The translations under genes and the position numbers were made by a program. From an uncultured Pseudomonadota bacterium (GTDB lineage: Bacteria > Myxococcota_A > Polyangia > Fen-1088), in the NCBI GenBank assembly GCA_963847705.1, contig CAWKBC010000027.1, positions 704,001 to 768,000 on the forward strand: DNA of 64,000 bases. The letters run 5' to 3'. The notes beneath the pieces are model-generated. The model was not told the DNA's origin, searched no databases, and was given only the letters and a program-made list of their open reading frames with translations. Within the stretch, counting starts at the first letter, position 1; every line of letters begins with the position of its first letter. Positions 6,389 through 16,781 of this stretch are shown here, piece by piece.

Positions 6389-7717
6389 ATGCCCCCAGTC
6401 GACCAAACCAACACGGAGACCGAGGAGTCTCCGTCCGGCAACTCTCCGCAAAAGCACGCGGTTCTGCTGATCTCGGCGTTCGGCGCGCGACGCGAGATCC
6501 GCTTGCCGCTGGAGGGCGCGGTGACCATCGGCCGTGGGCCGGCGACCTCGGGTTCGGCGTCCTTCGAGGATCGGCTGCTGTCGCGTGAGCACCTGCGGAT
6601 CACCCGCAAGGCTCGCGGATACGAGATCGAAGACCTGGGGAGCCGGAACGGGACGTTCCTGGACGGCCCGAGGCTCGAGCGGCCGACCCGTCTGTCGGAT
6701 GGGGCCCTGGTCCTGTTCGGACATCATGTCGGCGTCTTCCGGTGGGCCTCCGATGCCGAGCTGGCGGCCCTGCAGCAGGACGCCGCCGCCCCGTTCGGAC
6801 CTCTGCCGACGTTCTCACCCGCGCTGGCGCTGACCTACGCGCGGCTTCGCAAGCTGGCCCGCACCGACGCGGAGCTCTTGCTGGTTGGCGAGACCGGCGT
6901 GGGCAAGAAGGTCTGCGCGCGCGCCCTTCACCGGGCCTCCGGACGCAAGGGGCGGTTCGTGGCCATCAACTGCGCTGCGTTGCCAGCCGCGCTGGTGGAG
7001 AGGGAGCTGTTCGGCGCCTCGGCGGGCGCCGAGGCGACAGCCAAGGGCGCCAGCGTCGGGCTCGTCGAGGCAGCGGAAGGGGGGACGCTGCTGCTGGACG
7101 AGATCGGCGAATTGGTGCCCGCGCTCCAGGCGAAGGTCTTCCGCTTCCTGCAGGATCGCACCTACAGCCCGCTCGGCTCGACCAGACGTCGCCGGGCCGA
7201 CGTCCGGGTGATCGCCTCGACCGCGCGCCAGGGGATCGGCCTGGGAGCCGGCGCGATGCACGGCGACCTGGTCGCGCGGCTGGGGGCCGATCCGATCGCC
7301 ATTTCACCGCTGCGGAAACGGGCGGAGGAGATCCTCTCCCTGGTGGCGCACTTCGGCGAGGGGACCCTTCGCGAGATCGAGCCTGCCGCGGTCCGGGCGT
7401 TGTGCCTCTACGGTTGGCCCCTCAACGTCCGGGAGCTGGAAAAGACCGTGGCCAACGCGCTCGCCCTGACCGTCGGCGTCCGCCTCCGCCTCGACCACCT
7501 GCCGGCCGTCATCCGGGGCGCCCTGCAGCGAGGCGCCCCCATCGAAGCCCACCGCCGCGACCCGCGCCCCGCTCCCAACAGCGCCGAGCTGGAGCAGCTC
7601 TTGAAGCAACATGACGGCAACGTCGCCAGCGTGGCGCGAGCACTCGACCGGAAATGGAACGTGGTCTGGCGGTGGGTCGTGAAGTACAAGCTGCGGCCGG
7701 AGACCTTCCGTGACTGA
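6389..7717 (+). CDS. FHA-domain sigma54-dependent enhancer-binding protein (degenerate GAFTGA loop)
   Basis: FHA motifs IGRG, SREH, GSRNGT; Walker A GETGVGK; AINCAAL; Walker B LLLDEIGE; WPLNVREL; C-terminal Fis-type HTH. The L1 loop reads GAEATA. Confidence 0.88.
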   Translation: MPPVDQTNTETEESPSGNSPQKHAVLLISAFGARREIRLPLEGAVTIGRGPATSGSASFEDRLLSREHLRITRKARGYEIEDLGSRNGTFLDGPRLERPTRLSDGALVLFGHHVGVFRWASDAELAALQQDAAAPFGPLPTFSPALALTYARLRKLARTDAELLLVGETGVGKKVCARALHRASGRKGRFVAINCAALPAALVERELFGASAGAEATAKGASVGLVEAAEGGTLLLDEIGELVPALQAKVFRFLQDRTYSPLGSTRRRRADVRVIASTARQGIGLGAGAMHGDLVARLGADPIAISPLRKRAEEILSLVAHFGEGTLREIEPAAVRALCLYGWPLNVRELEKTVANALALTVGVRLRLDHLPAVIRGALQRGAPIEAHRRDPRPAPNSAELEQLLKQHDGNVASVARALDRKWNVVWRWVVKYKLRPETFRD

Positions 7718-10217
7718 GGATGGGAACGATCCGAGGTCGCCTCTCAGTGGAACCGACCTCGAACGACCGTTGCCGACCCCGGGGTCGCCGGCCGTCCCGT
7801 TGCGATCGGGAACGGTCCTGGCTGGTCGATACGAGATCGGCAAGACGATCGGACAGGGAGGCATGGGGGTGGTGGTCCAGGCCTTCGACAGGACACTGGG
7901 CGTCGAGATCGCCATCAAGATCGTCCGCGCGCAGTACGCCGGCGAGCGAGAGTGGAGCGAAAGGCTGGCCCGCGAAGTGAAGCTGGCGCGGCAGATCCAG
8001 CACCCGAACGTCTGCCGCGTCTTCGATTACGCGCAGGCGGACGGCAGGGCCTTCTTGAGCATGGAGCTGGCCGTCGGCGGCACGCTTCGTGACGAGCTTC
8101 GAGCCGACACGACCGCGGCGCGGCCGCTGGCGGCGCGAATCGCCGACGCGCGCGCGCTCGCCGCCGGTCTCGAGGCCATTCATGCGGCCGGGATCGTTCA
8201 CCGCGACATCTCCCCGCAGAACGCGTTGCGGATGAGCGACGGGCGTCTGGTGCTGTCCGACTTCGGCCTGGCCACCGATTCATTCGACGGCACGACCAGC
8301 ATCCGCGGCGGCACCGTGGCGTACATGGCGCCCGAGGTGGCCCGCGGCGGTCGGGCCAGCTTCGCGGCGGATATCTGGGCGCTGGGGGCCGTCATCCACG
8401 AGGCGGTCTTCGGGCAGCGCCTGCAGTGGGATCCGGAGAGCGGAGAGCTGCGCAGCGCGGTCACCAGCCGGCGGTTGACCCGGACGGAGCGCAGCGTCCT
8501 CGAGATCTGCCGCGCCTGCCTGGCGCCGAATCCGGCCCGCCGGCCGCGCGGCGCGGGCGAGGTCGCGGCGCAGCTGACCGAGCAGGGGCTGGCGCGGTCA
8601 GCCGGCCGCTGGCGGCGCCGGCGGGCCGCAACGCTCGCGACCGCCGCGATGTTCGCGGCCGCTGTCATCGTCGCCGAACAGCGGCTCAAGAGCGCGCGTC
8701 AGAGCGCAGCCCAGGTGGTTTCGGCCTCGGTCGATCCGCTCATGATCGTCCCCACCGGCGAGCCGGACGACTGGACCGACGAGTCGAGGGTCCTGGCCGA
8801 GGTGTCCGATCGGATTCGCTGCCTGGTGCCGCTTCCCGACCACCACACCGTCCGGTTCGTGTGGGGCTACCCCGCGCGCGCCGAGGACGTCGATACCCGC
8901 ACGGGGAGAGGCACCCCCTCGCCGCTGGTCCCCAACGCCTACGCCGAGGGATGCCCCGATCTGTCCCCCGACGGCAAACGCCTGGTCTACGCAGGCCATA
9001 CCCCTGACGATCGGGCCTACGCCTTCGTCTCGACGCATGCTGACGGCCGCGACGCGGTCCCGGTGGTGCCGACGGCCGAACCGTCCATGAATTCAGATCC
9101 CGTCTGGCTGAGCAGCGTGGACAGCTTCGTGTACGACGCCGACGCCAACCACGTGGGCGTGTTTTCGCTGGATGCGAAACGGAGCATGGTTCTTCCGACG
9201 ACCAAAGAGCCGTTCTTCTCGGCCTTTCACGGGGTTGTTGGCGATACGATGCTCATCGGCTGGTTGTTGCAAACCGGAGCCGTGGACTTCGATGGGTTTT
9301 CGTATCCGCGATTGGATGAAACGCTCCACTTTCGTTTGCCGCAAATGGTCTTTGATTTGACCCCCGCCGAGGGATCGACCTACTACGGTGCGATCTCCGG
9401 CCAGAGCGGCTTCACGATCGTGCGGATCGAACCGCAGAAGCGTCAGGCGCGCCTCGTCGGGAAGGTCGACCGTCAAGGCGTTCGGTACCCGCTGCTCGTC
9501 GAGGGGGGATTGGTGTTCGTCAGCGTGAGCAGGACCGCGTCGATGGTCTTGCGCACGGGAGCTGGGACGAGGCGCCTTCCTCTGCCGGCCGACGTCCGGG
9601 CGCCGTCCCTTTGTGGAGATCGACTCGTCGCCAAGAGGGTCGTCAATCTCGCGGCAGGCATCGTCTGGCTGGATATGGAGGGCAAGGAGATCGGTCGCGT
9701 CGCGGGCGACGAGAGAACAATGAACCCCAAGTGTTCGGGTGATGGACGGTTGCTCTTCTATGCGGTGTTCGGAGAGGGGCTGAAGCGGTGCCGAGGAACC
9801 GATTGCGAAATGATATTCCGGGGCGATCTCAATGGGTTTGTCCTGTCGCCTGACGACAGCCGGATCGCCTTCGAGTCGTCTGACAGCGGAGGGCATGCTG
9901 TGCGTTGGATTTACGCCGACGGGCGCGCAGGGGTTCATGAGCTGATCGAAACCGACACGCAGTGTCCGCTCCACTGGTCAAATACGAAGGACGTCTGGGT
10001 CGCCTTGCGCAAAGGCCGGAGGGTGACCTGGACGGAGTTCGATACGAACACCAGCCGACCGACCGGCAGGACCTTCCCTGGTACGCGGGACTGTACGGAC
10101 GGGGAAGAAGATCCGGCGTCGCCGGTCAAGGAAGCCGTGGAAGAGCAAGACATCTACCGGGCCCAGCTCCGCTTCCTTCCCGAGAAACACCTACCGGGCC
10201 GAGAGCGATCCCGATAA
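7710..10217 (+). CDS. Membrane Hanks-type Ser/Thr protein kinase with extracytoplasmic TolB/PD40-like beta-propeller
   Basis: Kinase motifs IGQGGMG, IAIK, HRDISPQN, DFG and YMAPE. A hydrophobic segment (ATLATAAMFAAAVIVA) follows an Arg cluster. SPDG-type repeats are present (LSPDGKRL, CSGDGRL, LSPDDSRI). The start overlaps the upstream stop. Confidence 0.9.
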   Translation: MTEDGNDPRSPLSGTDLERPLPTPGSPAVPLRSGTVLAGRYEIGKTIGQGGMGVVVQAFDRTLGVEIAIKIVRAQYAGEREWSERLAREVKLARQIQHPNVCRVFDYAQADGRAFLSMELAVGGTLRDELRADTTAARPLAARIADARALAAGLEAIHAAGIVHRDISPQNALRMSDGRLVLSDFGLATDSFDGTTSIRGGTVAYMAPEVARGGRASFAADIWALGAVIHEAVFGQRLQWDPESGELRSAVTSRRLTRTERSVLEICRACLAPNPARRPRGAGEVAAQLTEQGLARSAGRWRRRRAATLATAAMFAAAVIVAEQRLKSARQSAAQVVSASVDPLMIVPTGEPDDWTDESRVLAEVSDRIRCLVPLPDHHTVRFVWGYPARAEDVDTRTGRGTPSPLVPNAYAEGCPDLSPDGKRLVYAGHTPDDRAYAFVSTHADGRDAVPVVPTAEPSMNSDPVWLSSVDSFVYDADANHVGVFSLDAKRSMVLPTTKEPFFSAFHGVVGDTMLIGWLLQTGAVDFDGFSYPRLDETLHFRLPQMVFDLTPAEGSTYYGAISGQSGFTIVRIEPQKRQARLVGKVDRQGVRYPLLVEGGLVFVSVSRTASMVLRTGAGTRRLPLPADVRAPSLCGDRLVAKRVVNLAAGIVWLDMEGKEIGRVAGDERTMNPKCSGDGRLLFYAVFGEGLKRCRGTDCEMIFRGDLNGFVLSPDDSRIAFESSDSGGHAVRWIYADGRAGVHELIETDTQCPLHWSNTKDVWVALRKGRRVTWTEFDTNTSRPTGRTFPGTRDCTDGEEDPASPVKEAVEEQDIYRAQLRFLPEKHLPGRERSR

Positions 10218-10233
10218 TCTATCGCGCGGCTTC

Positions 10234-12750
10234 ATGAGCGGCTCGGGGTCAGGCTCGAAGGACAGCATCACCGAGGTCGCCGAGGAGTCCTTCGTCCGAG
10301 AGCGGCCGCCCGACATCGAGCGGGGGACGGTGCTGGCGGGCCGATACCAGATCGAGGACATCATCGGGAAGGGGGGGAGCGGGATCGTCCTGCGCGTGTT
10401 CGATCGGACGGCGCAGAATGTCGTGGCGCTGAAGGTCCTCAAGACCGAGCTCGCGCGCGACGCCAAGTGGGAGAAGCGATTTTCGCGCGAGCTGCGGCTG
10501 GGCCGGCCGATCCAGCACCCGAATGTCTGTCGTATCTTCGACATCGGAGAGGCCGACGGCCACCGCTTCCTGACGATGGAGATCGCGCAGGGTGGCTCGC
10601 TCCGCGATGAGCTGAAGCGCGGCGGCGCGCCGGAGCGATCCCTGGAAGCAAAGATGGCCGACGCGAGGGGCGTGATCGCCGGCCTGGCCGCTCTGCACGC
10701 CGCGGGCATCGTTCACCGCGACTTCAAGCCCGACAACCTCCTCCGGATGGGAGACGGCCGCCTGGTGCTGTCCGACTTCGGTCTCGCGACCGATGCAGCG
10801 ACCGCGCCCGGCGCGACGGTGTTGATCGGAACTCCGCACTACATGGCTCCGGAGGTCCTCGCGGGCGAGCCCGCGACGAGCCGCTCGGACGTCTGGGCGC
10901 TCGCGGTGGTCCTTCACGAGATCTTCTTCGGCCAGCGACCCGAGCGCCGGTCCGTGAGCTTCGACGGCTCCTCGAGAGGGCCGATTCGACCCAACTCGTC
11001 GACGGAGCGCAGAGTGATGGCCCTGTGCGAACAATGCCTCACAGAGTCGCCTTTGAATCGGCCCGCTGATGCTCGAGAGGTGGCGCGCCTGTTCGATTCC
11101 GAGCGACGTTCGCCCCCCAAGGGTGGGACGGCGGGCAAAAGGGCGGTGCTGGCCGTCTCTGGTCTGGCGGCAGCGGCGGTGCTTTCGATCGCCGTCCGTG
11201 CCTGGAGACCTCATCGGCGAGAGGTGTCGGCCGCACCGACTTCGGCGACGGCCACCGCCCTGCCCACCTCGGCGATAAGATTGGAACCCGGAGGTGACCC
11301 GGTCGATTGGAGCCGGTCGACGCGCGTCATTGGTGAAATCCCGGGGCGGGTGCATTGCTTTTCCGTGATTGACGAGAAGACGGTCAGAATCGTCTGGGGT
11401 TCTCCTCGAAGAGCGGAGGACGTGGAGGTGGAGTCTGGCAGGCGCCGAGTTGCCCGGTTGGCGCCGGAGACCTTCCGTGTCGGCTGTCCCGAGCTGTCGC
11501 CAAATCGAAAGGCGCTGCTCTTTACCGCCCAGACACAGGCGGGCGCTTCGGAGATTCGTCTTTCGATGTCAGACGGGCGAGAGGCGACGTCGGTGACCTC
11601 GGGCGCGGATCCGCTGTGGCTCGGCGGGAACGATGAATTCCTCTACAGCGTCGACCCGGCTCACGCCGCCGTGTTCTCGCTGCCGACCATGAGCTTTGCC
11701 CTGCTCGCCGGGTCGAAGCTCGGGCAACGGCAGGTGATCCTGGACAAAGCGGTGAGCCAGACTGGGAAGGCAGTCGCGTTGTTGGTGATGGCCGACAACT
11801 CGGAGCTCGGGCTCGCCGTTTATGATCAGCCGCCGTTCGAGCAGGCAAAGGTCTTTTCGATTCCTGAGCAGTATCCGATTCAATTTGAACCGCGAAACGA
11901 AGCGATTGTCTTCGCTTACGGCGCCGGTCAATCGGGCTCTGCCTTGATGGAGCTCGATTGGCGTCACGAGACGCTGCGGAGCATCGCCAGGTATCCGGGC
12001 TTCGAGTTGACGCGCGCCGCGCTTTCGGTCGACCAGGCCGCGACCAAGCTTCTGGTGGCGCGCCATTCGTCGAGCGACGTGTGGCTCTACGACGGAACGA
12101 AGAGAAAGAGGCTCACCAATGACGGCGCGGACTATTCCGCGGACCTGTCGCCCTCCGGCGAGCTCCTGGTGAGCAGGCTGGGCTCCGAGGGGTCATTTTC
12201 CATCTGGCGAATAGACGCCGATGGAACCGAGACAAAGCTGACCTCCGGACCGCGCGACGTCGGGCCGGCGTTTTCCCCCGACGGACGGCTCTGGACCTAT
12301 TCCGACTACTCGACCAGGAGCGTCATGCTTTGTTCGAGGACCTCGGGAGAGTGCCACGTCTTGCACCAGGACGAGCTCCTTCCCATCTGGCCGCGGATCT
12401 CTCCTGATGGAACCCGCGTTGCGTACGTGAGTGGGATGGGCTCACCCAAGGTCACGATCATTTCTGCGGCAGACGGGCGGATGCGCAACGCCTGGGACGG
12501 CCAGTATCAATGCGCGCCAATCTGGTCGACAGCGACGACGATCTGGTTTCTCGAGGCCGGCGCCGGGCGTTACTACTGGTCGGAACGCAATGTCGTCTCG
12601 GGTGAGAAGACGGGAAAGCGGGTGGAGGTGTTGACGGAGAACATGGCCCTTGGCGAGATCCAGTGCGGTTCGACGTCGCCCGACTCTCCGGTCTTTCAGC
12701 CCGTGCGCATCGAGAAGGAAGAGATCTCGAAGCTCCTCGTGTCGAGGTAG
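10234..12750 (+). CDS. Second, paralogous membrane Ser/Thr protein kinase with TolB/PD40-like beta-propeller
   Basis: Kinase motifs IGKGGSG, VALK, HRDFKPDN, DFG and GTPHYMAPE. TM segment AVLAVSGLAAAAVLSIAV. Repeats LSPSGE, FSPDGR and ISPDGTRVAY. Confidence 0.92.
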   Translation: MSGSGSGSKDSITEVAEESFVRERPPDIERGTVLAGRYQIEDIIGKGGSGIVLRVFDRTAQNVVALKVLKTELARDAKWEKRFSRELRLGRPIQHPNVCRIFDIGEADGHRFLTMEIAQGGSLRDELKRGGAPERSLEAKMADARGVIAGLAALHAAGIVHRDFKPDNLLRMGDGRLVLSDFGLATDAATAPGATVLIGTPHYMAPEVLAGEPATSRSDVWALAVVLHEIFFGQRPERRSVSFDGSSRGPIRPNSSTERRVMALCEQCLTESPLNRPADAREVARLFDSERRSPPKGGTAGKRAVLAVSGLAAAAVLSIAVRAWRPHRREVSAAPTSATATALPTSAIRLEPGGDPVDWSRSTRVIGEIPGRVHCFSVIDEKTVRIVWGSPRRAEDVEVESGRRRVARLAPETFRVGCPELSPNRKALLFTAQTQAGASEIRLSMSDGREATSVTSGADPLWLGGNDEFLYSVDPAHAAVFSLPTMSFALLAGSKLGQRQVILDKAVSQTGKAVALLVMADNSELGLAVYDQPPFEQAKVFSIPEQYPIQFEPRNEAIVFAYGAGQSGSALMELDWRHETLRSIARYPGFELTRAALSVDQAATKLLVARHSSSDVWLYDGTKRKRLTNDGADYSADLSPSGELLVSRLGSEGSFSIWRIDADGTETKLTSGPRDVGPAFSPDGRLWTYSDYSTRSVMLCSRTSGECHVLHQDELLPIWPRISPDGTRVAYVSGMGSPKVTIISAADGRMRNAWDGQYQCAPIWSTATTIWFLEAGAGRYYWSERNVVSGEKTGKRVEVLTENMALGEIQCGSTSPDSPVFQPVRIEKEEISKLLVSR

Positions 12751-12754
12751 ATGC

Positions 12755-12779
12755 CCGCCCGACGCTTCAAGTCGGGCGG
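12755..12779. terminator. GC-rich hairpin between convergent kinase-2 and peptide genes (candidate bidirectional terminator)
   Basis: CCGCCCGAC-gcttcaa-GTCGGGCGG forms a perfect 9-bp stem. There is no long U tract. Confidence 0.55.
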
Positions 12780-12802
12780 ACATCGCGTCTGAGAGGCGCT
12801 GT

Positions 12803-12946
12803 TCAGCAGGGCAGTCCGGGACGGCAAAGCCCCTGCGGCGCCACCGGCAACGGCACCCTCCGGGTCGGGTGAGCCGACACCGTACCCGTGGCAGCAATGG
12901 TGGCGGACGCGGCGAATAACGCGACGAGCATGATCTTCTTCAGCAT
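12803..12946 (-). CDS. Small secreted peptide precursor, 47 aa (MLKKIMLVALFAASATIAATGTVSA|HPTRRVPLPVAPQGLCRPGLPC)
   Basis: SD AAGGAG lies 5 nt before ATG 12946. The Sec signal has a KK n-region, a hydrophobic h-region and a V-S-A cleavage site. A sigma54 promoter lies upstream and a hairpin downstream. Confidence 0.8.
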   Translation of the reverse strand: MLKKIMLVALFAASATIAATGTVSAHPTRRVPLPVAPQGLCRPGLPC

Positions 12947-13023
12947 GGCGTCTCCTTGTGGTCTGGTGCTTGCGGAGTCGGAAAACCGCGTCAGAGATCG
13001 ACGCGGCCTTTCGGACTTCCATG

Positions 13024-13040
13024 AGCAACCGACGGACCAA
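13024..13040 (-). promoter_or_regulatory. Sigma54 (-24/-12) promoter of the peptide gene
   Basis: The minus strand reads TTGGTCCGTCGGTTGCT, which is GG-N10-GC with TGG and TTGC matching the consensus TGGCAC-N5-TTGC. It lies ~80 nt upstream of the ATG. Confidence 0.7.
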
Positions 13041-13135
13041 TACGGAGAGCCCAAAACTCCGGGCTTTGCCGGGGAAAAACGGACGTTTTCGGGGCGCGGT
13101 TTTATATCCGTTTACGCAAGCGGAGTTACGTTTTA

Positions 13136-14536
13136 ATGTTCGGCGGATCTGCTGTGATCACGCCCAACGAAAGCACCACCTTCGTTCCGCGCCACGAGGC
13201 GTCAGACGACCCCGTGAAGGTTCCTCTGTTGTTGGTTGTGGGGGACAACCGAGGGAATGTTCCGCTGGGGGCTGACAGAGTTGTCACGTTCACCGGGTCA
13301 CTGGTCGTCGGCCGCCGCGAGCCAACGCAGGGGGAGCCGGGGCAGTCGTCCCTGGTCCTGCCGGACCGGATGATCTCGTCGCAGCACATGGCGATCACCC
13401 CTGCGCCGGACGACGGGGTCTACGAGCTCACCGACCTGTCGAGCACCAACGGCACGATCGTCGACGGAGAGCCGGTCGAGACGACCGTCCGCTTGCGGGA
13501 CGGCTCGGTCATCTTCGTGGGGAGCCACGTGCTCGTGTTTCGGGTCACGACGGTCGCTCAGCGGACGGCGATCGAAGCCGAGCTCGCGAATCCCCTGGGA
13601 CCCGTGGCCACGGCCAACCCGGCCTTTGCCATGGTCTGTCAGAAGCTGCGCAAGCTGGCGGCGGCGGGCGAGGAGCTGCTGCTGACAGGCGAGACCGGCG
13701 TCGGCAAGGAGGTCTATGCCGAGGCGGTCCACCGGGCCAGCGGTCGGACGGGACGGTTCGTGGCCATCAACTGCGCCGCCATCCCCCGCGAGCTGGTGGA
13801 GACCGAGCTCTTCGGTTACGCGCGGGGCGCGCACTCGCAGGCGGCGATGGCCAAGGGCGGGATCATCGAGGAGGCGGAGAACGGGACGCTGTTCCTCGAC
13901 GAGATCGGCGAGATGGCGCCCGAGCTTCAGACCAAGCTGCTTCGCTTCACCCAGGACCGAATGTTGTCGCCGGTCGGCGGGCTGCGCGCGCGGAGGATCG
14001 AGACGCGCATCGTCGCCGCCACCAGCCGCACCGCCGCGCCGTCACAGTCGGGAAGCCTGGGGCTGCGCGTCGATCTGGCGGCGCGGCTCGGCGCCGAGCC
14101 GATCCGGATCCCGCCGCTGCGCGAGCGGGTCGAGGATCTGGGCGCGCTGGCCAGCTATCTTCTGGGCGCGCGGAAGAAGCCGATCGAGCTGACCGCGTTC
14201 CAGGCGCTCTGTCTTTACTCCTGGCCGGGCAACGTCCGCGAGCTCGGCAAGGTCGTGACCTCGGCCGAGGCGCTGGCGCGCGACAGCGATCGGATCGCCA
14301 CCGAGCATCTGCCAGGGACGATCTCGGCGGCGCCGCGGCTGAAGGGCTCGGCGGGGGGGCGCCGAAAATCGCGTCCGCCCCCGGACGCAGCCGAGCTGGA
14401 GGCGTTGATCCGCCGATTTCAGGGCAACATGATGCGCGTCTCGCGCGAGCTCGACCGCAAGCCGGCGCTGGTCTACCGCTGGGCCAAGCGGTTCGGCCTG
14501 AAAGCGGACGACTTTCGCGCTAAAAAAGAGGCCTGA
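13136..14536 (+). CDS. Second FHA-domain sigma54-dependent enhancer-binding protein
   Basis: FHA motifs VGRR, SSQH, SSTNGT; GETGVGKE; AINCAAIP; ELFGYARGAHSQA; LFLDEIGEM; WPGNVREL; HTH. It is divergent from the peptide gene. Confidence 0.9.
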   Translation: MFGGSAVITPNESTTFVPRHEASDDPVKVPLLLVVGDNRGNVPLGADRVVTFTGSLVVGRREPTQGEPGQSSLVLPDRMISSQHMAITPAPDDGVYELTDLSSTNGTIVDGEPVETTVRLRDGSVIFVGSHVLVFRVTTVAQRTAIEAELANPLGPVATANPAFAMVCQKLRKLAAAGEELLLTGETGVGKEVYAEAVHRASGRTGRFVAINCAAIPRELVETELFGYARGAHSQAAMAKGGIIEEAENGTLFLDEIGEMAPELQTKLLRFTQDRMLSPVGGLRARRIETRIVAATSRTAAPSQSGSLGLRVDLAARLGAEPIRIPPLRERVEDLGALASYLLGARKKPIELTAFQALCLYSWPGNVRELGKVVTSAEALARDSDRIATEHLPGTISAAPRLKGSAGGRRKSRPPPDAAELEALIRRFQGNMMRVSRELDRKPALVYRWAKRFGLKADDFRAKKEA

Positions 14537-15722: not shown

Positions 15723-16781
15723 ATGGCGCGCGAACCGGACGACGATGGCGAAGGCGAGGGGGGCGATCCCCGGGTCGAAGCGGCCTGGCAGGCGCTCGAG
15801 AGCGGCGACGTCGCGGAGGCGCGGCGGCTGGCCGAGGCGCTCGACGCGAAGTCGCCGGAGACGTTGCTGTTGCTCGGCGCCTGCTGCCGCGAAGAGGAGG
15901 ACGACGCCCAGGCGATCGCGATCCTGAAACGGGCCGCCGCGGCCGATCCCGAGTGGGCGACGCCGGAGCTCTGGCTCGGTGAGATCCTGGCCGGCGATCC
16001 GGAGGCGACGGCGGAGGCGCTCCGGCATGCCACGCGCGCGCTCGATCTGACGGACGACGAGACGGAGTTCCTGTCGGCGGTCGCGCTCAAGGCCGGTCTC
16101 GAGACCGAGATGGGCGAGACCGAGGAGGCGAAGCGGACCCTGGCGGAGCTGCCGCCGCCCGAGGTCCGGCTGGAGGATCTGGACCTGGCGCTGGAGATCG
16201 CGGACCTGCAGCTGGCGCTGGGCGATCCCGAGGCGGCGCGCGAACGCCTGCTCCTTTTGTGCGAGGCGAGCCCGACGATGGCGGACGCCTGGTACGCGCT
16301 TGGCTGCGCGGCCGAGCAGCTGGAGGACGAGACCGAGATGCGGGCCGCCTGGAAGCGCACCTGGGCGCTCGATGCCGCGCCGACCGGTGGCGATGTCGCG
16401 GCGGGGGAGGCCGAGCGGCTGCCCGAGGCGGAGGTCGCGGCGGTCGCCGAATCGGCGCTGGAGGAGCTCCCCGAGCGGGCGCGCGCGCTTCTGCAGGGGA
16501 TCCCCATCGTCATCGCCGAGCTGCCGGCCGAGGCCGACGTGGCCACCGGGCTCGATCCGCGGGTGCTGGGTCTGTTCAGCGGGACGGCGCACGGCGATGG
16601 CGCCACCGGGCTGGGCGGTCAGCCCGGGCTCACTCAGATCGTGCTCTTCCGGCGGAACCTCGAGCGGGCGGCCCGCGACGAGGATGAGCTTCGCGAGGAG
16701 ATCCGGACCACCTTGCTGCACGAGACCGGACATTTTTTCGGTCTCGACGACGCGGCGCTGGAGGAGATCGGGCTCGGGTAA
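15723..16781 (+). CDS. TPR-repeat protein with C-terminal Zincin_1 metallopeptidase domain
   Basis: Ala/Leu-rich TPR-like helices, then LGLFSG...IVLFRRNL...LLHETGHFFGL (HExxH). Confidence 0.85.
   Translation: MAREPDDDGEGEGGDPRVEAAWQALESGDVAEARRLAEALDAKSPETLLLLGACCREEEDDAQAIAILKRAAAADPEWATPELWLGEILAGDPEATAEALRHATRALDLTDDETEFLSAVALKAGLETEMGETEEAKRTLAELPPPEVRLEDLDLALEIADLQLALGDPEAARERLLLLCEASPTMADAWYALGCAAEQLEDETEMRAAWKRTWALDAAPTGGDVAAGEAERLPEAEVAAVAESALEELPERARALLQGIPIVIAELPAEADVATGLDPRVLGLFSGTAHGDGATGLGGQPGLTQIVLFRRNLERAARDEDELREEIRTTLLHETGHFFGLDDAALEEIGLG

Follow-up and report, generated by a model that had tools for sequence, protein, structure and literature searches.

Gene content of the locus

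The 64,000-nucleotide (nt) stretch analyzed here (the window; positions 704,001 to 768,000 of contig CAWKBC010000027.1, from an uncultured Pseudomonadota bacterium) contains a cassette of five genes which appear to specify a small exported peptide, two membrane-bound Hanks-type kinases (K1, K2) and two FHA-containing sigma-54 activators (EBP1, EBP2). EBP1 (6389–7717), K1 (7710–10217) and K2 (10234–12750) are encoded on the plus strand, with K1 overlapping EBP1 by 8 nt and K2 following K1 after a gap of 16 nt. Tail-to-tail with K2, 52 nt from its stop codon, lies the minus-strand gene for a 47 amino acid (aa) peptide precursor (12803–12946), which is in turn head-to-head with EBP2 (13154–14536, plus strand). 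The longest open reading frame (ORF) for EBP2 begins at 13136; its start is probably the GTG at 13154, since 13 of the 15 listed cluster members are 460 aa in length. The original prediction, made by a model from the DNA letters, had described this same layout, and all ORFs, spacings and domains were confirmed.

Both kinases contain Pfam Pkinase (E-values 2e-47 and 6e-43) and PD40 domains together with the Gly loop, VAIK lysine, HRD and DFG hallmarks, and are paralogues sharing 33% identity over 820 residues. Both activators have Pfam FHA, Sigma54_activat and AAA lid domains; the peptide has no Pfam match. Comparison with related sequences, in which L, P and G000 label loci, peptides and the window's own genome, points to a conserved core of three genes, K2, the small peptide and EBP2, with K1 and EBP1 as accessories.

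The peptide family

The precursor comprises a Sec-type signal peptide whose cleavage is predicted after residue 25, a Pro-rich linker, a P-Q-G motif and a C-terminal Cys-X5-Cys loop. The original prediction had suggested looking beside homologous kinases for unannotated signal-peptide ORFs with a Cys pair. An ORF of this type (39–63 aa, C-terminal Cys pair), on the opposite strand directly behind K2 and head-to-head with EBP2, was found at 30 of the 30 best genome loci, the present one included, and in wider stretches taken from 60 loci all further K2 cassettes with room for it possess the peptide; in two frameshift-rich assemblies the gene is broken, and a few weak, distant kinases of the family (L082, L084, L085, L086 and L089) have none. 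Scanning metagenomes with the kinase domain of K2 returned 76 loci, a few of them duplicates of genome rows: 26 K2 loci with room, six K2 loci cut by the contig end, 10 K1-type kinases and 34 unrelated kinases. The peptide is present in this arrangement at 26/26 of the K2 loci with room, and neither ectodomain nor peptide occurs at the unrelated kinases (0/34). Searching from the activator side gave the same association, peptide, promoter and upstream motif being present at 4/4 further EBP2 orthologues with upstream DNA (five others stop at contig edges), and the peptide cassette missing at 11/11 more distant GAHS(T/Q)A paralogues of EBP2. The peptide is therefore a conserved gene tied to kinase and activator, and the objection foreseen at the outset, that homologous cassettes might usually lack it, does not apply.

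A profile search with the peptide yielded 149 clusters at 50% identity, 147 of which have at least two cysteines. This family, together with the conservation at K2 loci, rules out a chance ORF. Among 61 peptides examined, 59 C-termini are distinct and 58 sequences carry a net positive charge after residue 24; a double-glycine leader pattern and a lipobox cysteine after the signal were each found in 0/61. Pfam analysis of 38 members revealed no bacteriocin match and no fitting family, a single peptide showing a weak match to PhrC_PhrF (E-value 0.015). An atlas look-up gave only unnamed clusters (0.80–0.81), which are leads at best.

Ten precursors, counted by eye, contain the P-x-G...C...C unit twice in tandem (P0174, P0182, P0208, P0215, P0240, P0278, P0288, P0301, P0304 and P0307), the two cores being either identical or different; one gene may thus yield two peptides. 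The repetition suggests that this short unit is the working product. The most distant cassettes, from three distant genomes (L064, L072 and L078), have divergent acidic or multi-Cys peptides without P-x-G, and their K2 proteins differ at the start of the activation segment.

The ectodomain family is present in 49 of the 89 genomes of the host family, while 328 sampled genomes from other families of the class gave one weak partial match. The contigs of several genomes (L182–L189) stop within approximately 1 kb of the EBP2 start, at or near the variable block described below; a mixture of alleles in the sample is a possible reason.

Kinases and their ectodomains

In K2 a hydrophobic segment (residues 304–321, about 11143–11196 on the plus strand; best 19-residue Kyte-Doolittle mean 2.04) separates the kinase from the C-terminal region. 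Counting duplicates, 51 of the 69 K2 rows and 35 of the 39 K1 rows reach a mean of at least 1.6. The ectodomain (about 11270–12750), which has conserved cysteines, is predicted to be a periplasmic tandem beta-propeller: the AlphaFold2 models of the two kinases' ectodomains are all-beta with about 40 strands (pLDDT 91.7 and 91.2), the top Foldseek matches are tandem beta-propeller proteins at a low TM-score (about 0.3), and a profile search matched the C-terminal half to TolB (E-value 5e-14). Blade counts were read from secondary structure only. One membrane helix and one propeller ectodomain per kinase, as originally proposed, are therefore the predicted topology. The propeller of TolB binds short peptides.

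The catalytic loop of K2 is canonical (HRDFKPDN), and the HRDxK lysine was present in 30/30 rows read. That of K1 reads HRDISPQN, with the lysine replaced by Ser, Thr or Ala in 9/9 rows read, a feature which the earlier reading had missed. Myxobacterial kinases without the catalytic-loop lysine can be active.

K1-type ectodomains are found in the genus of the window and in one other, where they are mostly encoded at a distance from the cassette. Four further genera, represented by 13 genomes, gave no K1; K2 is present in 12 of these genomes. The number of copies ranges from 0 to 2 or more per genome, and in some genomes tandem copies have kinase domains which are 70–98% identical and ectodomains which are only 35–53% identical. 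No peptide gene was found beside stand-alone K1 kinases. At two loci (L115:10692–12752 and L118:11208–12773) the K1-type kinase is found on the downstream side of EBP2, and not upstream of K2. The possibility that K1 ectodomains are copies of K2 alleles was rejected, since they score as a separate clade.

K2 is the candidate receptor for the peptide on the following grounds. The window shares its K1 ectodomain (81%) and EBP2 (96%) with locus L096, and shares with it neither the K2 ectodomain (48%) nor the peptide ring; L096 has its K2 ectodomain (67%) and ring in common with L037 instead. Over 14 loci the distances among K1 ectodomains correlate with those among K2 ectodomains (rho 0.84), and the nearest neighbours differ in 9 of the 14. 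An allele-matched co-receptor was accordingly rejected as a general rule for K1, which does not follow the peptide and was not found in several genera; it is better read as an extra receptor. The original prediction held with regard to the link of peptide to kinase and activator, the preserved promoter and the identity-locus type of variation. No support was obtained for a need of both kinases and both activators, or for K1 as an allele-matched co-receptor.

Activators, promoter and targets

Both FHA domains retain the G-R, S-x-x-H and N-G-T residues, which bind phosphothreonine. The N-terminal tail of EBP2 has an S-x-T motif in 60/60 rows, and a similar motif precedes the kinase domain in 57 of 61 K2 and 25 of 36 K1 rows, so that the phosphothreonine wiring originally put forward fits the sequences. 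EBP2 has intact Walker A and B motifs in its Sigma54_activat AAA+ domain; its helix-turn-helix (HTH) was read from sequence and has no Pfam match. EBP1 is of the same FHA-AAA+-HTH type. Its Walker A motif ends in GKK, its L1 loop is a degenerate GAEATA here and GAHSTA in most relatives, and the gene is often split or absent in relatives' loci. That neither activator has the GAFTGA loop had also been missed.

FHA activators with GAHSTA or GAHSQA loops (such as G000:C30:34434–35825 and L191–L201) are widespread in the family, including genera without the peptide cassette. Elsewhere in the genome, the kinase domain closest to those of K1 and K2 (G000:C14:149515–153582; 45–47%) is joined to a helical-looking C-terminal part and is divergent from an apparently frameshifted FHA activator; this place yielded neither a small peptide nor a sigma-54 site accompanied by an ORF.

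Upstream of the peptide gene, on the minus strand, are a ribosome-binding site (AAGGAG, 12952–12957), a predicted stem-loop in the 5' untranslated region (12979–13014; z -2.4), a sigma-54-type -24/-12 promoter (TGG-N8-TTGC, 13025–13039) and, 70 nt upstream of the GG, a near-palindromic motif (G(T/A)T(T/A)(T/C)RNAAC, 13097–13108) which is a candidate EBP2 site. The window contains 11 sigma-54-type sites against 4.7 expected, which makes a lone site weak evidence. Among the relatives, GG-N8-TTGC occurs within 165 nt of the peptide start at 39 of 40 loci (shuffles: mean 1.8, maximum 6; opposite strand 0), and the looser GG-N8-(T/A)TGC at 59/59; these loci are kin and the counts are not independent events. 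The eight spacer positions are largely free, and invariant bases flanking a varying spacer are the pattern expected of selection on a sigma-54 promoter. The upstream motif is found at 70–71 nt in 45 of 59 loci, with a score of 14.4 versus about 7.0 in shuffles. The z-score of the stem-loop averages -1.3 in 58 relatives and is below -2 in 20 of them. A second sigma-54-like match (12959–12973, plus strand) is, by eye, not retained in relatives and was taken as chance.

The window's own genome possesses RpoN and 44 sigma-54 activator-family proteins, most with GAFTGA. When this genome, which is 85% complete, was scanned with a combined promoter and motif model whose training set included the peptide promoter itself, that promoter scored 41.0 and the runner-up among 594 sites 25.4. 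The peptide promoter that had been predicted is thus both conserved and the sole strong match, which leaves the peptide as the only clear target. The runner-up (G000:C32, minus strand near 78599) precedes a lipoprotein-like ORF; its sigma-54 site is strong and its upstream motif weak, and it is a possible second target.

Variation of the ectodomain and the peptide

Because the genes converge, the K2 ectodomain and the mature peptide are encoded contiguously. Together with the membrane region of K2 they constitute one hypervariable block (11100–12870, ends approximate), which differs sharply between otherwise near-identical strains. Relative to its two closest relatives, the window shows DNA identities of 87–93% in the flanking genes, 82–87% in the kinase domains and 90–91% in EBP2, and of only 62–71% in the ectodomains, where about 60% is the baseline for unrelated sequences. 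Loci L113 and L116 are 93–100% identical over the kinase and 90–99% from the signal-peptide codons through the promoter and EBP2; between these regions identity falls to 41–62%. The edge is sharp and lies inside the peptide gene, and the two rings are unrelated. The same identity shape was seen with L094 and L095. Synonymous difference between L113 and L116 is 0.10–0.11 outside the block and 0.64 inside it, which points to old alleles exchanged by recombination rather than to fast point change. Such exchange of old alleles is known for agr and for the plant S-locus. Recombination may therefore swap the block as a unit and so set specificity groups.

Co-variation of ring and ectodomain was analyzed with FastTree trees and with p-distances. 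For the tree and pair tests two incomplete and two duplicate loci, three metagenome rows identical to genome rows and six loci without EBP2 were left out; for the p-distance test (33 loci) five loci in which the kinase or AAA domain is incomplete or missing were left out. The difference between rings follows that between ectodomains across 23 disjoint nearest pairs (rho 0.65; partial 0.67, permutation p 0.00015) and does not follow change in the intracellular parts (rho 0.20). With p-distances, a partial Mantel test was likewise positive (r 0.26, p 0.002). Short ectodomain branches are seen in the clades whose ring is stable. Read together with the less favourable tests given below, these results are mixed, and show that ectodomain and peptide are co-inherited.

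Flanking genes

The cassette is flanked by genes for an arginase, a TPR/HExxH protein, rpsT, holA and a lipase-like protein. The arginase gene or its neighbour adjoins the cassette in 32 of 37 loci. A mobile island was ruled out, the chromosomal neighbours being constant across genera. A cluster mate of the arginase at 90% identity carries the label Polyangia bacterium, so that the host is probably a myxobacterium of this class. The TPR-like protein with a C-terminal HExxH motif (15723–16781) lies two genes from EBP2 in most relatives; judged by eye it has no signal peptide, which makes a role in peptide processing doubtful.

Proposed function and alternatives

We consider it probable that the peptide is the ligand of K2, in whichever compartment the two meet. 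In the model that we favour, the precursor would be exported by Sec, oxidized to its disulfide form and trimmed near the P-[QHK]-G motif. The oxidized loop would bind the ectodomain of the cognate K2 and bring about dimerization and autophosphorylation, the threonine of the N-terminal S-x-T motif included. EBP2 would then dock on phosphorylated K2 through its FHA domain, be phosphorylated in its own S-x-T tail as are GarA, OdhI and DgcB, and activate the peptide's sigma-54 promoter by means of its non-canonical GAHSQA loop. Recombination of the block would set the specificity groups; copies of K1 are likely accessory receptors for the peptides of other strains or for other cues, and the phosphorylation of other FHA proteins by K2 would be the likeliest route to an output beyond the peptide. 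That this constitutes a strain-specific autoinducing loop operating between cells is a proposition for which our belief and our doubt are about equal. A fuller version is held a little more hesitantly: that the locus is a bacterial counterpart of the S-locus, in which disulfide-loop peptide and receptor kinase form an exchangeable self/non-self lock and key acting through phosphothreonine, FHA, GAHSQA and sigma-54, with K1 duplicates listening to other strains and with well over a hundred specificity types.

Several observations weigh against such a loop. The all-pairs partial Mantel test on tree distances (46 loci) was not significant (r 0.07, p 0.19), and the signal peptide, which was intended as a control, co-varies with the ectodomain nearly as well as the ring does (0.59 in the pair test, 0.19–0.24 in the Mantel tests), so that physical linkage alone could produce the pattern; the kinase/peptide co-variation which the original prediction had proposed to test is therefore upheld by the nearest-pair and p-distance tests and not by these. 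Among 14 cases of discordant nearest neighbours, only 9 have a ring that goes with the ectodomain, and the rings of L033 and L035 are almost alike on ectodomains which are only 51% identical. Ectodomain dN/dS, the ratio of nonsynonymous to synonymous change, is below 1 (0.09–0.39) in all 12 pairs, and classical positive selection (a ratio above 1) was thus not seen in them. The scan of the 85% complete genome found no second strong target promoter or wider regulon. No outer-membrane exporter or dedicated protease was found at the locus, and Sec export ends in the periplasm. Finally, the L1 loop of EBP2 is never GAFTGA, being GAHSQA in 33, GAHSEA in two and GSHSQA in one of 37 loci, with one unread.

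The point on export gives rise to an alternative in which the peptide is still the ligand of K2 and acts within the periplasm of the cell that makes it, inhibiting or tethering much as CpxP or ZraP does. Were it lost, reduced or cleaved, the cell would be alerted to a breach in the outer membrane, to a redox fault or to the protease of an attacker, and the loop would restore the peptide. With Sec export stopping in the periplasm and no exit route encoded, peptide and ectodomain would share one compartment, and we retain this explanation for that reason while regarding it as unlikely; a peptide promoter that is the only strong target, and a chromosomal location that stays the same, next to arginase, rpsT and holA, would suit it as well. 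A housekeeping sensor, though, offers no clear reason for rings that are almost unique to each strain or for the exchange of old alleles, and it leaves unexplained the duplicated K1 genes, whose kinase domains are 98% identical and whose ectodomains are 53% identical. In a further alternative the peptide would be a weapon, that is, a small cationic disulfide peptide which harms competitors or prey and also serves as its own inducer, K2 sensing the producer's version and the K1 copies those of rivals. Nisin and plantaricin A are examples of peptides that serve as their own inducers, and the net positive residues in 58 of the 61 sequences, the hypervariable rings and the peptide's standing as the only strong output would all agree with it. 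The cassette has no immunity gene, exporter or modifying enzyme, the mature cores are very short and rich in Pro and Gly, and the 38 members searched gave no bacteriocin match, and we judge a weapon to be decidedly improbable.

Quite as doubtful, in our estimation, is a scheme in which the peptide is output only. K2 would then sense a fast-changing outside cue, such as a phage or the surface of a predator or prey, and the peptide tail would hitch-hike on the recombining ectodomain. The co-variation of the signal peptide and the non-significant tree-distance test would agree with this, as would the K1 ectodomains, which lack a peptide gene and vary to the same degree, and a few distant kinases (L084, L089) which have the intact Lys loop and no peptide. 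Against it, the swapped block of L113 and L116 ends inside the peptide gene, taking the mature part and sparing the signal; the short ectodomain branches of the stable-ring clades and the tail-to-tail order at every locus with room likewise tell against hitch-hiking. As to the activator loop, EBP2 might not remodel sigma-54 at all, acting as a repressor or with sigma-70 while another, canonical activator fires the promoter, in a genome rich in GAFTGA activators. This we hold to be very improbable: RpoN is present, and GAHSQA, the Walker motifs, the promoter and the upstream motif are conserved together, which argues for GAHSQA being a working variant of the activator loop.

Relationship to known systems

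Jelsbak, Givskov and Kaiser reportedly described in 2005 sigma-54 activators of Myxococcus xanthus with FHA, AAA+ and HTH domains and without a receiver domain, and proposed that their input comes from Ser/Thr kinases often encoded nearby. The activators of the present cassette have the same architecture and differ in the GAHSQA L1 loop and in having a small peptide gene as target; those of M. xanthus are not known to be accompanied by a peptide gene or a polymorphic receptor.

The agr system of Staphylococcus and ComC/ComD/ComE of Streptococcus combine a peptide gene linked to its sensor with positive feedback and a hypervariable sensor-peptide block. The present locus resembles them in the linkage of the peptide to a membrane sensor, in the proposed feedback on the peptide promoter and in the hypervariable block between conserved flanks. 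It differs in that its sensor, a Hanks Ser/Thr kinase bearing a propeller ectodomain, is not a His kinase, and in that the output is, by the Pfam content of the cassette, FHA and sigma-54 with no response regulator. Furthermore, the peptide has a Sec signal and a predicted disulfide loop, no AgrB or C39 exporter is present in the cassette, and the host has an outer membrane. Membership in the RRNPP group (Rap/Phr, PlcR/PapR) is not indicated, the neighbours being a membrane kinase and an FHA activator with no cytoplasmic TPR receptor; nor is a bacteriocin cluster or one for a peptide made on the ribosome and modified after translation (RiPP), as no modifying enzyme, exporter or immunity gene lies beside the precursor.

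In one source, AgrC/AgrA is described as sensing an octapeptide, Mycobacterium PknD as a one-pass Hanks kinase with a single six-bladed extracytoplasmic beta-propeller, and ligand-driven dimerization as established for PASTA kinases, the ligands named for receptor Hanks kinases being peptidoglycan fragments (PMC6213207). PknD and K2 thus share the one-pass kinase and the propeller; the propeller here is in tandem, and the portion of that source drawn on here mentions no gene-encoded peptide ligand (PMC6213207). In GarA, OdhI and Bdellovibrio DgcB, according to a further source, a conserved Thr lies in an N-terminal tail before the FHA domain and its phosphorylation switches the protein (PMC6733907). 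The tail of EBP2 has the same placement, here on a sigma-54 activator and with matching S-x-T motifs on the N-termini of the kinases, and its phosphorylation would be analogous.

The individual parts are therefore known, and their arrangement, provided that it functions as proposed, would be categorically new as a system. No description of this wiring in bacteria turned up in a literature search whose reach excluded most subscription papers, nor did the literature searched yield a gene-encoded peptide ligand for a bacterial Hanks kinase. To our knowledge, ligands have been assigned to very few of these kinases. The locus offers dozens of matched candidate receptor-ligand pairs, including the near-isogenic natural swap of L113 and L116, which makes ligand sensing by a Hanks kinase, signaling from FHA to sigma-54 and activation without GAFTGA directly testable in a heterologous host. 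If the loop operates between cells, the locus would also be a source of orthogonal signaling channels.

A likeness in working is seen with Brassica SRK and SCR/SP11 and other receptor kinase-peptide pairs of plants, in which a one-pass Ser/Thr receptor kinase and a small secreted Cys peptide are likewise tightly linked and highly polymorphic. The two are not homologous outside the kinase fold, and the bacterial version has a tandem propeller with a TolB-like half and a sigma-54 activator as its output. Should the peptide indeed act between cells, a Gram-negative soil lineage would possess in this cassette a peptide-based identity or quorum system whose parts are unrelated to those of agr and Com and which converges on the receptor kinase-peptide logic of plants.

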